A stretch of DNA of 41,551 nt from Minisyncoccia bacterium. Its GTDB lineage: Bacteria; Patescibacteriota; Minisyncoccia; UBA6257; GWB1-50-10. The position numbers were made by a program, and so were the translations under genes. The DNA lies in NCBI GenBank assembly GCA_049997835.1, contig JBEKSI010000001.1, positions 1 to 41,551 of the forward strand, written 5' to 3'. The notes under the pieces were generated by a model. It had not been told where the DNA came from. It saw only the letters and a list, made by a program, of their open reading frames with translations, and made no database searches. Positions 3,887 through 41,551 of this stretch are shown in pieces. Position 1 is the stretch's first letter, and the number at the start of each line of letters is the position of its first letter.

Positions 3887-3950
3887 CTACAAAATCTATC
3901 TATTAAGCAAAAACACCCACCTTACTAAGTGGGTATTTTTGTTTTATAAT
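3887..3950 (+). repeat. 64-nt direct repeat, copy 2
   Basis: CTACAAAATCTATCTATTAAGCAAAAACACCCACCTTACTAAGTGGGTATTTTTGTTTTATAAT. Its TATAAT (3945-3950) lies 8 nt before the ATG at 3959. Confidence 0.8.
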
Positions 3951-6095: not shown

Positions 6096-6459
6096 AAATA
6101 TTCTCTTCAAGCAACTCTTCCATATTTCCTTTTGTTTATCTAATAAAATAACAAGAGGTTTGAATTTTGTTGAGAAAACTGTCTCGCAGGCCGAGCGGGC
6201 AGGTGTCTGCCTACGGCAGACGAGCGAGGCCGAGAGCAAGTGCAAATTCCTCGCTGGGAAATTTGATAACGTGTTTTCGAAACGAAATTCAAACCCCGCA
6301 CACCAAACCCTACTGGTCTGAGAACGCGGGGAAGGACGCGAGTTTTTACATATCGCATTAGAGTTTTTGACAAAACCCGCCCAAAAGCTCTATTGTGAAC
6401 CCAGTTGTTTAGAAAATGATTTAGAAAACAAAATCACCTCTTGAGAGGAGGATTGTAAA

Positions 6460-6837
6460 ATGCTAAAAAAATCCGAGATTAAACCGGGCGTTATCTTATG
6501 CTGGGGGATAGATCACCCAATCAACAAATTCTCAATAGATTATTGGTCGGTTTTGGAAGTTGGTGAATTGTCTTTCAAGATTGAACTGTTGGGTGGAGTA
6601 AACGAGGTGAAAGAAATTCATTTTGATTCAGAGTTTTTCTCCCGCATGAAAATCTCCAATTCCGAGGAAGTATTTTTATCCTTTGTTAAAATGGAGAAAA
6701 AATTCGCTGAGGAAAGAATCGCAAAAAAGCGGGAACTGGAAGAATTTGAATCAAAATATCAGGAATTCCATGAAAAGGTAATGGAATTCAAGCGCAGGTT
6801 CAAACCTAATTCAAATCTCGCTTCGCAAGCGGCATAG
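6460..6837 (+). CDS. Hypothetical protein (charged, coiled-coil-like C-terminus)
   Basis: GAGGAGG lies 9 nt upstream of the ATG. TTGACA at 6366-6371 is a possible -35. A terminator follows. Confidence 0.5.
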   Translation: MLKKSEIKPGVILCWGIDHPINKFSIDYWSVLEVGELSFKIELLGGVNEVKEIHFDSEFFSRMKISNSEEVFLSFVKMEKKFAEERIAKKRELEEFESKYQEFHEKVMEFKRRFKPNSNLASQAA

Positions 6838-7226: not shown

Positions 7227-7269
7227 GGTCCTCCTCTCCGGAGTGGGAATAACTCCCAAGTCTTGAACC
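7227..7269 (-). repeat. Structured intergenic element, divergent copy F (core only)
   Basis: The reverse complement reads GGTTC AAGACTTG GGAGT-tattccc-ACTCC GGAGAGGA GGACC. This is the same AAGAC..hairpin..CCGGAG architecture as copies A-E. Confidence 0.5.
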
Positions 7270-17845: not shown

Positions 17846-17879
17846 CTTCAAAATTTATCCATATGGATAAATTTTGAAG
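17846..17879. repeat. 34-bp perfect palindrome, copy 3 (identical to 1456-1489)
   Basis: CTTCAAAATTTATCCATATGGATAAATTTTGAAG lies 12 nt after the fba stop, followed by GCGCCTTTTTC. Confidence 0.95.
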
Positions 17880-17931: not shown

Positions 17932-18663
17932 ATGGAGTCACAAAATATCAATAAAATAATTTTGGAAGTCCGAGCCGGGACGGGCGGGGACGAGGCCTCG
18001 CTTTTTGCCGGCGACTTGGTGCGGATGTATCAGAAGTATTCCCAGAAAAAAGGATGGAATTTTTCCATTCTTGACGCGAGCGAAAGCGGCGCGAAGGGAT
18101 ATAAAACATTGGTTGCCGAAGTAGCCGGTACGGGAGTTTATGGCGCCTTAAAACAGGAATCCGGCGTGCATCGCGTACAAAGGGTTCCCGAAACTGAGCG
18201 GCAGGGAAGAATTCATACTTCAACGGCCTCAGTCGCGGTTCTGCCGGTCGTGGAGGCGAAAGCGGTGGATATAAAAGACAGCGATTTGGAAGTGACTTTT
18301 TCCCGCGCGGGCGGCCCCGGCGGGCAGAACGTAAATAACGTTGAAACGGCAGTGAGAATCACGCACAAGCCGACGGGTATCGTGGTTTCATGCCGGATGG
18401 AACGTTCACAGCATGCGAATCGCGAAAAGGCGATGGAAATGCTCCGTTCAATACTTTTTAACGAAGCCCAGCGCCAATCGGTTGGTTCTATATCAGAACT
18501 CCGGAACAACCAAATTGGTTCGGGTGACCGTTCCGAAAAGATACGCACTTATAATTTCCCCGATGACCGGATAACGGACCATCGCATTGGAAAAAAGTGG
18601 CACAACATAGAAAAAATTCTTGAGGGAGATTTTGAGCCCATAGTAAAAGCCTTCGCGAAGTAA
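17932..18663 (+). CDS. prfA: Class I peptide chain release factor of RF1 type, lacking N-terminal domain 1
   Basis: [36 protein letters not shown] and [23 protein letters not shown]. Only 243 aa. There is an in-frame TAA three codons upstream of the ATG. Confidence 0.85.
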
Positions 18664-18746
18664 AGCAAAATCCGGCACTCCCGCTCAGGCTGTCTCCGGG
18701 GCGACGCCCAAGTCTTAGCCTTCGCAAGAGTACCGGATTTTGCTTT
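18662..18746 (-). repeat. Structured intergenic element, copy A
   Basis: A 19-bp outer stem (AAAGCAAAATCCGGCACTC / GAGTACCGGATTTTGCTTT, one C-A that becomes G-U on the minus strand) encloses the core CCGCTCAGGCTGTCTCCGGGGCGACGCCCAAGTCTTAGCCTTCGC. Confidence 0.85.
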
Positions 18747-18767
18747 CTTCTTTCTCCTATTAAAAAA

Positions 18768-18847
18768 GGATTCGGCGAGCCAAGAAAAGTGGGTAAGACC
18801 GAGGCCTTGTTGGCCCGGAGCGCACACTTTTTTGGCTTGCCGAATCC
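18768..18847 (+). repeat. Structured intergenic element, copy E
   Basis: An outer stem of about 23-24 bp (GGATTCGGCGAGCCAAGAAAAGTG / CACTTTTTTGGCTTGCCGAATCC, two G-U pairs) encloses GGTAAGACCGAGGCCTTGTTGGCCCGGAGCGCA. Confidence 0.8.
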
Positions 18848-21295: not shown

Positions 21296-21541
21296 TAAAA
21301 CCAATATGGAAGGTTATGCTTAGTTAAAAATTCAGAATAAGTTTTAAGGAGTTTAAAGACATCCGTCGCGAGTTTCTGAGAGAAACCGGAGATTCACGAG
21401 GGATGTTTTGTTCTGAGATGGCCGCGCTGATCGTAATTTGAAAAATCAATATAAACCATACGCATTAAAAATTTTTTTAGTTGTCCTGTTTATTTCTGAA
21501 ACTTTGTACGAGGAACTCGATCGAGGGTTTTTCGTACGGAG

Positions 21542-23025
<1,484 letters not shown>

Positions 23026-23712: not shown

Positions 23713-23718
23713 ACGAAT

Positions 23719-24291
23719 ATGAAAAAAGGTTTTACATTAATTGAACTTCTCGTTGTCATCGCAATTCTTGCCGTCTTAGCCACGGCCGTCGTTTTGGTTT
23801 TGAATCCCGCCGAGCTTTTGAAACAGGGGAGGGACTCCACTCGCGTTTCCGACATGGCGGCCTTGAACAGCGCCATATCGCTTTGGACTGCGGATGTTTT
23901 GAATGGCACTTGGGCTGCCAGCACGAAATGCACATCTTCCGTCACCGCGCCAGCCGGGGTTTTCACTACCGCTTGCACTGTATCAACTTCCACCGTTACT
24001 ACCGGCACTGGTTGGGTGGCTTTGAATTTCGGTTCCATTGCCGCCGGTTCGCCTCTTTCAAAATTGCCGATGGATCCGAATAACGGTTCCACGAATTGCA
24101 GTGCTGGCACTCCGGCTGTTTGTGAATACGCGATTAATATGAGCAGCACGACAGGCATTTATAAATTGGCCACCCAAATGGAGAGCGCGAAGTTTCGGGC
24201 GGGCGGTAGCGCGGATGCCACATCCAACACCAAGGACGGAGGCACCAGTGATAGTTGGTACGAGGTTGGAAGCAACCTGACGGCGTGGTAA
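23719..24291 (+). CDS. Type IV pilin-like protein (prepilin N-terminal methylation motif), paralog 1
   Basis: MKKGFTLIELLVVIAILAVLA. TGcTACAAT at 23702-23710 lies 8 nt before the ATG. Confidence 0.9.
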   Translation: MKKGFTLIELLVVIAILAVLATAVVLVLNPAELLKQGRDSTRVSDMAALNSAISLWTADVLNGTWAASTKCTSSVTAPAGVFTTACTVSTSTVTTGTGWVALNFGSIAAGSPLSKLPMDPNNGSTNCSAGTPAVCEYAINMSSTTGIYKLATQMESAKFRAGGSADATSNTKDGGTSDSWYEVGSNLTAW

Positions 24292-24330
24292 TTTAACCTC
24301 ATTTTAAGTAGTTGTGGTATAATTAAAAAA

Positions 24331-24906
24331 ATGAAAAAGGGTTTTACCCTCATTGAACTTTTGGTCGTCATCGCGATTCTTGCCGTCTTAGCCACGGCCG
24401 TCGTTTTGGTTTTGAATCCCGCCGAGCTTTTGAAACAGGGTAGGGATGCCACCCGCATTTCCGACTTGGCGGCTCTAAACAGCGCTATCTCTCTTTGGGT
24501 TTCGGATGTAATCGCCGCGACCAATTGGAGCAGCGCTGCCGGTTTGCATTGCACCTATGATGCCACTCACCCGAACGCTTTTTCCGGCGCTTCCGCTTGC
24601 TCCGTTATCGCATCCACAACCGTAGATGGAACCGGCTGGGTGGCCTTGGACTTCAGATTAATTGCCGCCGGTTCGCCTCTTTCAAAATTGCCGATGGATC
24701 CGAATAACGGCGCTTCAGCGTGCAATAAGGGCTCTCCGGCTGTCTGCGAATACGCGATTAACGTAAGCAGCACGGTCGGCACTTATAAGTTGGCCACGCA
24801 GATGGAGAGCGTTAAATTTAATACCGGGGGGGGTTCCGATGTAACCTCCAAAGACGGCGGCACGGATGCGAACTGGTATGAAGTCGGAAGCAACATGAGC
24901 TTATAA
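24331..24906 (+). CDS. Type IV pilin-like protein, paralog 2
   Basis: It has the same N-terminus as paralog 1 and shares 65-nt and 50-nt identical DNA blocks with it. TGgTATAAT at 24315-24323 lies 7 nt before the ATG. Confidence 0.9.
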   Translation: MKKGFTLIELLVVIAILAVLATAVVLVLNPAELLKQGRDATRISDLAALNSAISLWVSDVIAATNWSSAAGLHCTYDATHPNAFSGASACSVIASTTVDGTGWVALDFRLIAAGSPLSKLPMDPNNGASACNKGSPAVCEYAINVSSTVGTYKLATQMESVKFNTGGGSDVTSKDGGTDANWYEVGSNMSL

Positions 24907-35124: not shown

Positions 35125-35203
35125 ATGAAACCAGCATATGAAAAAGTGGGTAAGACTTGGGCTAGCGCCCCGGAGCACACACTTTTTCGTATGCTGGATT
35201 CAT
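35125..35203 (+). repeat. Structured intergenic element, copy D
   Basis: A long outer stem (ATGAAACCAGCATATGAAAAAGTG / CACTTTTTCGTATGCTGGATTCAT, with one U-G pair and one mismatch) encloses GGTAAGACTTGGGCTAGCGCCCCGGAGCACA. Confidence 0.8.
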
Positions 35204-37470: not shown

Positions 37471-37541
37471 CACCCAACGTCCCCGCTCAGGCTGTCTCCG
37501 GGGCGACGCCCAAGTCTTAGCCTTCGCGAGGACGTTGGGTG
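37471..37541 (-). repeat. Structured intergenic element, copy B
   Basis: A 12-bp perfect outer stem (CACCCAACGTCC / GGACGTTGGGTG) encloses CCGCTCAGGCTGTCTCCGGGGCGACGCCCAAGTCTTAGCCTTCGCGA. The core is identical to copy A over about 44 nt. Confidence 0.85.
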
Positions 37542-39000: not shown

Positions 39001-39079
39001 TTGCCTAGCGCACCCGTGAAGAAGGGTAAGACTTGGGCGTCGCCCCGGAGACACCCTAATGAACGGGTGCGCTAGGCAA
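39001..39079 (+). repeat. Structured intergenic element, copy C
   Basis: A 17-bp perfect outer stem (TTGCCTAGCGCACCCGT / ACGGGTGCGCTAGGCAA) encloses GAAGAAGGGTAAGACTTGGGCGTCGCCCCGGAGACACCCTAATGA. Confidence 0.85.
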
Positions 39080-39089
39080 GCACTGGGGC

Positions 39090-39117
39090 TTGACGCCAAA
39101 ACGGCTTTTGCTATAAT
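39090..39117 (+). promoter_or_regulatory. Strong sigma70-type promoter (extended -10)
   Basis: TTGACG (39090-39095), a 16-nt spacer ending in TGc, then TATAAT (39112-39117). Confidence 0.65.
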
Positions 39118-39123
39118 GGACAT

Positions 39124-39226: not shown

Positions 39227-39390
39227 TTATCTTGAGCCGCGCCGAAAGGATGTTCTGAACGAACTTTCAAAAATAAATATCTGATTGAAGTAGTAACAAA
39301 ACTCAAAAAACAAGTCAGTTTTTTGAGGTAGAAATTAACAGTGCTTCACGTAGCGATTCGTGAAGCGGTCCCGAGCGAAAGCGAGGGACT

Positions 39391-41551
<2,161 letters not shown>

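Follow-up and report, generated by a model that had tools for sequence, protein, structure and literature searches.

Hairpins past stop codons of a Minisyncoccia contig belong to a Patescibacteria-only repeat family and probably are small palindromic insertion elements

The window, the whole stretch of 41,551 nucleotides from contig JBEKSI010000001.1 of a Minisyncoccia bacterium, contains five long hairpins (A to E). They begin 0-11 nt past the stop codons of the genes for release factor RF-1, an SLT-domain protein, a DUF192 protein, ribosomal protein L33 and Pcm, and they occur in both orientations, in line with an earlier note on this DNA. The neighbouring genes were confirmed by Pfam and the ORF listing. 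The note counted six sequences in the family, and all of them are present in the window; together with a further pattern match they are as follows.

Copy A, 18662-18746, minus strand: type 1 (GCGAAGGC-core-ACAGCCUGAGC); core 18692-18716; 37.0 bits, E = 7e-7
Copy E, 18768-18847, plus strand: type 4 (GAAAAGUGGG-core-CGCACACUUUUU); core variant 18794-18820; 30.4 bits, E = 3e-5
Copy D, 35125-35203, plus strand: type 4; core 35151-35175; 72.8 bits, E = 7e-16
Copy B, 37471-37541, minus strand: type 1; core 37494-37518; 40.8 bits
Copy C, 39001-39079, plus strand: type 1 variant with inner stem GGGU/ACCC; core 39028-39052; 38.9 bits
Sequence F, 7227-7269, minus strand: AAGACTTGGG...CTCCGGAG, without a long stem; z = -0.5; no covariance-model match at E <= 10
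Seventh pattern match, 21356-21391, upstream of 16S: 11.4 bits, E = 2; different fold

The stem of copy A overlaps the stop codon of the RF-1 (prfA-like) gene, to which its AAGAC strand is antisense. Between the end of copy E and the stop of the SLT-domain gene, which runs on the minus strand, lie 11 nt; a run of six Ts follows the copy on the minus strand, and the apical helix of the copy is compensated (GGCC/GGCC). Copy D lies in sense orientation, 10 nt past the DUF192 stop and 19 nt ahead of an FKBP gene. Copy B, which shares 98% identity with copy A over 49 nt, is antisense to rpmG (L33) and lies 5 nt past its stop and 29 nt ahead of a tRNA gene, with GCGA...GAAGC flanking the base of its stem. 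Copy C begins 5 nt past the pcm stop, and a promoter-like TTGACG-N17-TATAAT (for 23S rRNA) is located downstream of it. U-rich tracts follow copies A, E and B, read in the direction of the incoming gene, and are absent from D and C. Besides, the window holds separate plain terminators with T-tracts.

The pattern AAGAC-N(3-25)-CCGGAG occurs 7 times in the window, compared with 0.32 expected from shuffled sequences, and the 25-nt core AAGACTTGGGCGTCGCCCCGGAGAC is identical among copies A, B and C. In folding, copies A-E form long hairpins of -41 to -61 kcal/mol (z = -7.4 to -9.2). A covariance model derived from other genomes picked out precisely these five, in the order D, B, C, A and E, with 72.8-30.4 bits and E-values from 7e-16 to 3e-5. 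The proposed family of six therefore holds for A-E, all of them significant, but not for F, which has no long stem and falls below the significance of the model. Since AAGACTTGGG followed by CCGGAG is very improbable by chance, F looks like a decayed relic and is probably not a full copy, and the match at 21356-21391 is probably due to chance and not a member of the family.

To determine the range of the family, we scanned one genome per GTDB species with the 19-base core pattern TAAGACTTGGG-N(4-12)-CCCCGGAG. Among the matches listed, the pattern was found in at least 114 genome blocks, which belong to Patescibacteria except for 2-3 chance hits; these include Pirellulaceae and Microcoleus contigs, neither with a hairpin. 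The core-bearing lineages among these matches comprise Saccharibacteria/Nanosyncoccus, Paceibacterota, Kaiser-, Jorgensen- and Wolfebacteria, Minisyncoccia, Peregrini- and Peribacteria. The search of relatives with a covariance model, which the earlier note had proposed, gave more copies with strong covariation in other genomes: 129 matches in 860 kb of Patescibacteria blocks, about ten of which are missed by the exact pattern, and no match in 483 kb of metagenomic loci that are unrelated and had been obtained with an FKBP protein. The outcome by which the earlier note would have regarded its family as refuted, no further copies or covariation elsewhere, thus did not occur. No match to the core pattern was present in 2.9 million IMG/VR viral contigs, which were searched for a viral source. 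Thus, hairpins A-E are genuine copies of one repeat family that is confined to Patescibacteria.

Rfam contains no family for these hairpins, in agreement with the failure of the earlier note to recognise the motif. At the gathering threshold, Rfam 15 matched only rRNA and tRNA in the window, and the best hit of permissive scans over four regions was a generic hairpin model (21.7 bits against a threshold of 40.2). No description emerged from the literature searched on the core sequence or on repeats and palindromes of CPR bacteria, and such an absence is not proof. Exact-protein look-ups of the window loci returned only the source contig, a metagenomic sequence of Patescibacteria type under ENA accession ERZ27250059. 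For the five window sites, no orthologue with an empty site was found in a metagenome scan with the FKBP protein, which gave 80 loci without synteny and without elements.

Among the 116 usable copies, the median values for the hairpin are 27 bp and 88 nt (65-150 nt, with some above 150 nt), and the core lies at its tip. The apical module of about 25 nt is almost invariant and asymmetric: U-AAGA-[C U. GGGC-loop-GCCC. G G]-AG(A)C. The AAGAC and CCGGAG strands had been regarded as constant and unpaired; the conservation of this asymmetric module stands, while part of AAGACUUG/CCGGAG is predicted to pair (C-G, U-G). Sequence conservation peaks at the centre and falls outward. The inner arms are specific to subfamilies, with frequent tandem G.A pairs in a Y-GA-R context, and give the following subtypes.

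GCGAAGGC-core(GUC loop)-ACAGCCUGAGC: window copies A and B, with C as a variant
AAAAAGUGGG-core(UAGC)-CGCACACUUUUU: window copies D and E
GAGAC-core(AARC)-YGGUCUC
GAGGGAG-core(UAGC)-CGCUCCCGA
CGAAGGGCC-core(GAGC)-CGGCCCGAG

It turned out that 36 type-1 copies have a common layout: an A-rich lead, AGCGAG, a helix of about 12 bp (CCRRRYAYYYYY, purine/pyrimidine), GCGAAGGC, the core, ACAGCCUGAGC, the complementary arm and CGAGCG. This layout fits window copy B, and the stem of window copy A resembles copies in other genomes. Because the layout is common to so many copies, the near-core stems are, judging from the alignment, diverged homologous arms that changed mainly by compensated transitions. 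The earlier statement that the outer stems share no sequence was therefore too strong; it applies to the outermost pairs only, which are the locus-specific part and, as the coding copies show, can be host sequence. In two copies of one genome, an extra domain of about 80 nt replaces the apical loop with the reading frame kept. Tandem G.A steps (5'-GA/5'-GA) are located at alignment columns 12-15 and 49-52, where the neighbouring pairs covary. A canonical k-turn, SRP, the sarcin-ricin loop and a ribozyme were considered for the core; none of them appears to fit its sequence, and none has support in Rfam. For the kink-turn, the comparison was made by reading the sequence alone: tandem G.A is frequent, and the canonical 3-nt bulge opposite an uninterrupted strand is absent.

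Covariation was measured in an ungapped alignment of 80 tetraloop copies (the type-1 GUC loop was left out) over a specified 19-bp stem and the 6-bp apical helix; the covariance model used for the window and the Patescibacteria blocks was made from this alignment. Double-sided changes occur in 18 of the 19 stem pairs. The covariation score is 0.499, compared with 0.144 for shuffles, none of which (0 of 500) reached it, and with 0.10-0.21 for slid partners; a mixed-type alignment fitted to the model gave 0.708 versus 0.175. For instance, the apical helix shows a G-C to C-G swap from GGGC/GCCC to GGCC/GGCC in window copy E and in three copies of other loci (L015, L084 and L086). Within the window, the inner stem covaries as had been noticed before (AGGCU/AGCCU versus AGGGU/ACCCU).

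To find the strand under constraint, we counted only isolated mismatches with three Watson-Crick pairs flanking each side. Read on the AAGAC strand, 28 of these are G-U and 6 are A-C (p = 2e-4), and the G-U excess exists regardless of the host mRNA, with ratios of 9:0 for sense and 25:8 for antisense copies. Because the excess appears with both sense and antisense mRNA, the constraint concerns the element's own strand and not the host transcript; the folded form under constraint is that of the AAGAC strand, whatever the direction of the host gene. Two other counts were discarded: 280 G-U versus 97, in which the scoring rewarded G-U, and a symmetric global count of 149 versus 143, in which over-extended alignments diluted the signal.

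The element is preferentially antisense to the local gene, both inside large ORFs (25 versus 5) and between tandem genes (26 versus 14), and its hairpin starts at a median of about 6 nt past the stop codon of the opposite-strand gene. A T-tract follows 3 of 28 copies entered in sense and 6 of 39 entered in antisense, that is, about 10-15% on either strand. With T-tracts after so few copies, the family cannot be classed as canonical terminators, and termination does not define it.

The family had been taken as local and purely intergenic, which is not the case: it spans the phylum and also resides in frame in housekeeping genes. About a quarter of the copies (30 of 116) lie deep in ORFs of at least 240 aa whose frame stays open across the hairpin; beyond the verified genes, these ORFs were called with a crude ORF finder. 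Pfam identified IleRS, ValRS, UvrB, TsaD, PGK, UvrC, BipA, GatB, a class-V aminotransferase and MurB as hosts, and PDB alignments added MnmA, TrmD, Tgt and LigA, with 20-38 extra residues at the hairpin in each. The inserts are in frame and located in variable loops of these housekeeping proteins. The core is translated in five frames (LRGASPSLT, RSGALAQVL, VSGATPKSY, SPGRRPSLS and KTWASAPE), so that its conservation is at the nucleic-acid level. A purely intergenic cis-RNA is hence not the whole story.

Comparison of filled and empty sites revealed what is gained in such genes. Among three Saccharibacteria tsaD genes that are 77-80% identical, two (L024 and L069) contain a 51-nt insert which is absent in the third (L022); the insert consists of the core and an arm whose sequence complements the native codons upstream, and between the two filled genes the native and the inserted arms have changed in a compensatory manner. 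Elsewhere in these TsaD genes there are further long hairpin inserts, whose cores differ or have decayed. Filled and empty orthologues of TrmD, MnmA, IleRS, PGK, BipA and a NifS-like protein give inserts of 17-28 aa (51-84 nt) within hairpins of 69-148 nt. Because the inserts are shorter than the hairpins, these alignments show an inserted unit of the core plus inner arms (about 50-85 nt), from which the helix runs on into native host sequence. A general rule of the core with one arm copied from the flank, which fits TsaD site 3, was rejected, as a close empty orthologue of TrmD shows both inner arms inserted; the PDB alignments had seemed to support the one-arm rule for TrmD and LigA. Besides, the Tgt site is filled in opposite orientations in two genomes, and the TrmD site with different subtypes and frames in two genomes. 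In MnmA copies of six genomes the core is kept and the arms turn over, which counts against an insertion element. This point is weakened because an exact core was the criterion by which all loci, including these, were collected, so that finding an invariant core among orthologues is in part circular.

Further signs of turnover are three nearly identical full-length paralogues at separate loci of one genome (L029, L036 and L099) and decayed or truncated copies, including several clearly degenerate variants found by the model. When 557 neighbouring proteins were clustered, we got only housekeeping proteins (e.g. EF-P, RecA, ComEC, RecG and FtsZ) and no transposase, reverse transcriptase or nuclease. 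The search for a parent element, with core halves separated by an ORF, yielded none in 916 kb, where only two apical expansions of about 80 nt and one truncated copy were seen. No variable direct repeats flank the copies as a target-site duplication would; the recurrent GCGA...GAGC at the flanks is constant and paired as part of the stem. No recent case of presence/absence polymorphism between close strains was found either. Mobility is thus deduced only from comparisons between species and between paralogues.

Taken together, the lineage restriction, subfamilies, filled and empty sites, paralogues, decay, in-frame residence and lack of a linked enzyme place the family in the class of bacterial palindromic insertion repeats. 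We consider it probable, by analogy, that the hairpins are copies of Patescibacteria-specific small non-autonomous palindromic insertion elements, with the Rickettsia palindromic elements (RPEs) as the closest known counterpart. RPEs are palindromic repeats often inserted in frame in unrelated genes (PMC10969869), and the present palindromes, too, occur both between genes and in frame in unrelated conserved genes whose orthologues are without them. Like the element, RPE-1 to RPE-10 are short hairpin palindromes in a reduced genome, fall into several subfamilies and have no transposase of their own; they are intergenic but also unusually often in frame in housekeeping genes, to which they add a peptide loop (PMC10969869). 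In contrast, RPEs are conserved over their whole length and confined to Rickettsia, whereas in the element only the 25-nt asymmetric tip and short subfamily arms are conserved, the stem enters host sequence, the core is common to a phylum-level radiation, and translation in five frames yields no conserved peptide. Homology to an RPE consensus is not expected in view of the taxon and the GC-rich core, and the likeness would be one of class, not of sequence. The conserved tip (in place of ends or stem), the host-recruiting stem and the phylum-wide range are unusual among palindromic insertion repeats.

Such an element might spread via a folded single-stranded intermediate, either ssDNA or RNA copied back into DNA, and could rely on homology-helped template switching or on a core-recognising enzyme encoded elsewhere in the genome. 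The stem would then grow outward through hairpin-templated correction or selection, and the window copies would double as 3'-end hairpins of prfA, the SLT gene, rpmG, the DUF192 gene and pcm.

Other classes of repeats resemble the element in part. REP/BIME and REPIN sequences are likewise extragenic palindromes at 3' ends, with many copies in both orientations, and they probably work as single-stranded hairpins with an influence on mRNA stability or termination. However, REPs conserve the stem and a GTAG/CGTC tag, measure 20-40 nt and avoid ORFs, whereas the element has variable stems, a conserved tip, no such tag and no RAYT gene in its neighbourhoods. MITEs (Correia, ERIC, BOX, RUP, SPRITE) are also non-autonomous, foldable sequences of 60-150 nt near genes, sometimes fused to ORFs, with a potential role as terminators or RNase III sites. 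Their terminal inverted repeats are conserved, target-site duplications flank them, and a parent IS usually exists; in the element the ends are least conserved, and neither terminal repeats with a flanking duplication nor, in the 916 kb searched, a parent IS was seen. The contrast with MITEs drawn in the earlier note thus stands as to the missing conserved ends, but it was too sharp as a separation from mobile repeats, given the filled and empty sites, paralogues and decay. Integron attC sites resemble the element in their location right after a stop codon and in a strand-specific, folded single-stranded structure that is conserved on variable sequence. They differ by R/L boxes at the stem base, extrahelical bases, cassette arrays and IntI, none of which was seen here, where the module is apical and the copies are dispersed, some of them in ORFs.

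The alternatives to an insertion element account for parts of these data. One reading, to which we give limited credence, takes the hairpins as host-functional structured RNAs, in which the internal loop, the apical hairpin and the G.A modules form a putative site for a conserved Patescibacteria protein or RNase. The RNA would act at mRNA 3' ends (stability, processing, termination) or via sense-antisense pairing, its internal loop AAGA/AG(A)C would possibly form tandem sheared G.A or a UAA/GAN-like motif, and the copies in ORFs would be by-products of spread. It agrees with a core that is invariant across classes, transition-dominated compensatory evolution with the G-U excess on one strand, tandem G.A conserved while flanking pairs covary, the close start past stop codons (median about 6 nt) and the apical expansion of about 80 nt that keeps the frame. 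The depletion of sense copies in large ORFs (5 versus 25) is also what one would predict for a sense RNA whose activity does harm inside genes. But most copies are antisense and the constrained strand would often be untranscribed, copy B has no minus-strand gene nearby, around a quarter of the copies lie in coding regions in five reading frames, decayed copies are tolerated, and the element is absent from the 483 kb of other loci. Furthermore, tandem G.A pairs in the Y-GA-R context and G-T wobble pairs are stable in single-stranded DNA as well.

An ssDNA site for recombination or nicking, like REP/REPIN-RAYT, IS200/IS605 ends or attC, whose folded form would be recognised by a tyrosine or HUH-type enzyme encoded once per genome, is an improbable reading. 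Strand-specific folding independent of transcription, the position right after stop codons as in attC and REP, and individual copies without a linked enzyme gene agree with it, and GCGAAGC-type motifs and Y-GA-R tandem G.A pairs are stable in DNA. Yet the conserved part is apical and not at the stem base (as in attC) or in the stem (as in REP); no GTAG/CGTC tag, cassette array or RAYT/TnpA gene was present within about 900 kb of retrieved sequence; and copies A and E stand in opposite orientations within 100 nt, which argues against a simple link to the replication strand. That the hairpins are ordinary Rho-independent terminators, alike by chance or gene conversion, or else known transposon ends or a known RNA family, is very improbable and largely refuted. 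The U-rich tracts after A, E and B in the direction of the upstream gene and the location of all five window copies at gene 3' ends agree with terminators. Against this, a T-tract follows only about 10-15% of copies on either strand, so that a hairpin with an immediate U-tract does not describe the family, some copies are located within ORFs, distant members of the phylum have an identical 25-nt core, and the window has its own plain T-tract terminators; the view that the hairpins are not plain terminators was thus borne out. Likewise, there is no Rfam match for a known RNA family, and no longer element bounded by two core halves was found in the 916 kb searched for transposon ends.

With a palindromic insertion element as the preferred reading, several observations sit uneasily with plain selfish DNA. 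These are the near-invariant asymmetric 25-nt tip across distant classes and the conserved G.A modules, both of which one would sooner expect in a functional RNA or a site of protein binding than in junk DNA, and also the G-U bias on one strand independent of host transcription and the orientation bias. They suggest that something conserved recognises a folded single strand (RNA or ssDNA), for which a mobilising enzyme, a host RNA-binding protein and the pairing of sense and antisense copies are candidates. As a tentative and rather unlikely extension, the 25-nt tip could be the recognition module of a Patescibacteria-wide machinery, either a folded-strand insertion pathway that builds the stem from the target or a sense/antisense "address" for a protein or RNase. 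If the former were true, it would be a new mode of transposition, transposase-free or encoded in trans; if the latter, a network would tie the expression of translation and repair genes together and hold the core constant phylum-wide.

Patescibacteria account for a large part of bacterial diversity, and few mobile elements have been recognised in their tiny, streamlined genomes. A repeat with one and the same 25-base tip throughout this radiation, located inside essential genes such as those of aminoacyl-tRNA synthetases, tRNA-modification enzymes, ligase and UvrB, was unexpected. The element accounts for many "CPR-specific insertions" in conserved proteins, is a source of annotation and alignment artefacts, and can serve as a lineage marker for Patescibacteria. 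Saccharibacteria are now genetically manipulable, which makes it testable how the hairpins spread without a linked transposase and why the fold of one strand is preserved.

In addition, the apical loop and the internal loop might form a tertiary pair: AAAC occurs with U, AAGC with C and GUC with A, an association that may only reflect subfamily linkage.

The housekeeping genes Tgt and TrmD carry AAGAC hairpins (a conserved AAGAC...CCGGAG core on a variable stem) in frame in some Patescibacteria genome blocks retrieved by core match, and the same site can hold different occupants. In Tgt, blocks L010 and L086 carry the hairpin at one shared site but face it in opposite directions; in TrmD, the insertion site of L061 and L106 contains different subtypes in different reading frames. 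The blocks of each pair come from different genomes. These differences imply that the sites would have been targeted repeatedly, or that the core was inverted and replaced between its inverted arms.

The subtypes can also be compared at the base after CCGGAG, which is associated with position 3 of the apical loop in alignment A1/A2. The AAAC loop goes with U and the AAGC, UAGC and GAGC loops go with C, both with few exceptions, and the GUC loop is followed by A. This association could reflect a tertiary or intermolecular pair, or it could be mere subfamily linkage.

Variant hairpins were found in Saccharibacteria, located in TsaD or carrying an expanded apex:

L024:3428-4750, TsaD with additional long hairpin inserts at aa ~121-162 and ~226-265
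L069:4418-5590, TsaD with an additional long hairpin insert at aa ~226-250
L047:4130-4269, copy with apical expansion
L051 ~6450-6590, minus strand, copy with apical expansion, same genome as L047

The additional TsaD inserts have folding energies of -57 to -94 kcal/mol, and their tips differ or have diverged (AAGUCCCGCCCGUGACGACGGGCCGGGAC, CGCCCCGUGGCGACGGGCG, UAAGCUCGGCCGAACGGCCUCGAG), which suggests a wider superfamily of such hairpin elements in Saccharibacteria. In the L047 and L051 copies, the apical tetraloop is replaced by a multi-hairpin domain of ~80 nt, whose internal helices are mutually compensated.

The window contains further repeats and RNA features:

2410-2473 and 3887-3950, pair of 64-nt terminator-type stretches
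1456-1489, 2032-2065 and 17846-17879, three copies of a 34-nt AT-rich palindrome, CTTCAAAATTTATCCATATGGATAAATTTTGAAG, a second repeat family
21544-23025 and 39385-41551, unlinked 16S and 23S rRNA genes
21356-21406, stable hairpin in the 16S leader (-29.7 kcal/mol, z = -4.8)
39090-39118, consensus-like promoter TTGACG-N17-TATAAT
23716-24227 and 24328-24851, adjacent tandem duplicate ORFs, each ~190 aa
29421-34073, 1550-aa ORF with internal repeats, downstream of type IV pilus/T2SS-like genes

The 64-nt stretches share 81% identity, and each is closed by a GC hairpin and then a T-tract (AAAAATACCCA...TGGGTATTTTTGTTTT). They are canonical terminators and appear duplicated, showing that the genome also has ordinary U-tract terminators besides AAGAC hairpins. 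The palindrome is near-perfect, and all three copies lie directly 3' of genes; their flanks are likewise alike (66-nt family D7).

About 16 kb of protein genes separate the two rRNA genes, and the 23S rRNA has several inserted segments when aligned to the bacterial model. The promoter lies immediately past the AAGAC hairpin that follows pcm, and the 23S rRNA is ~270 nt further downstream. The 16S-leader hairpin includes AAGAC...CCGGAG, probably by chance. At 11.4 bits it does not belong to the AAGAC family, and it could instead be a stem for rRNA processing.

The 1550-aa ORF, for which no Pfam match is on record, contains at least 13 irregularly spaced copies of a ~28-58-nt repeat (GGCAACGTCGGCATCGGGACG), and the tandem ORFs share 77-87% DNA identity.
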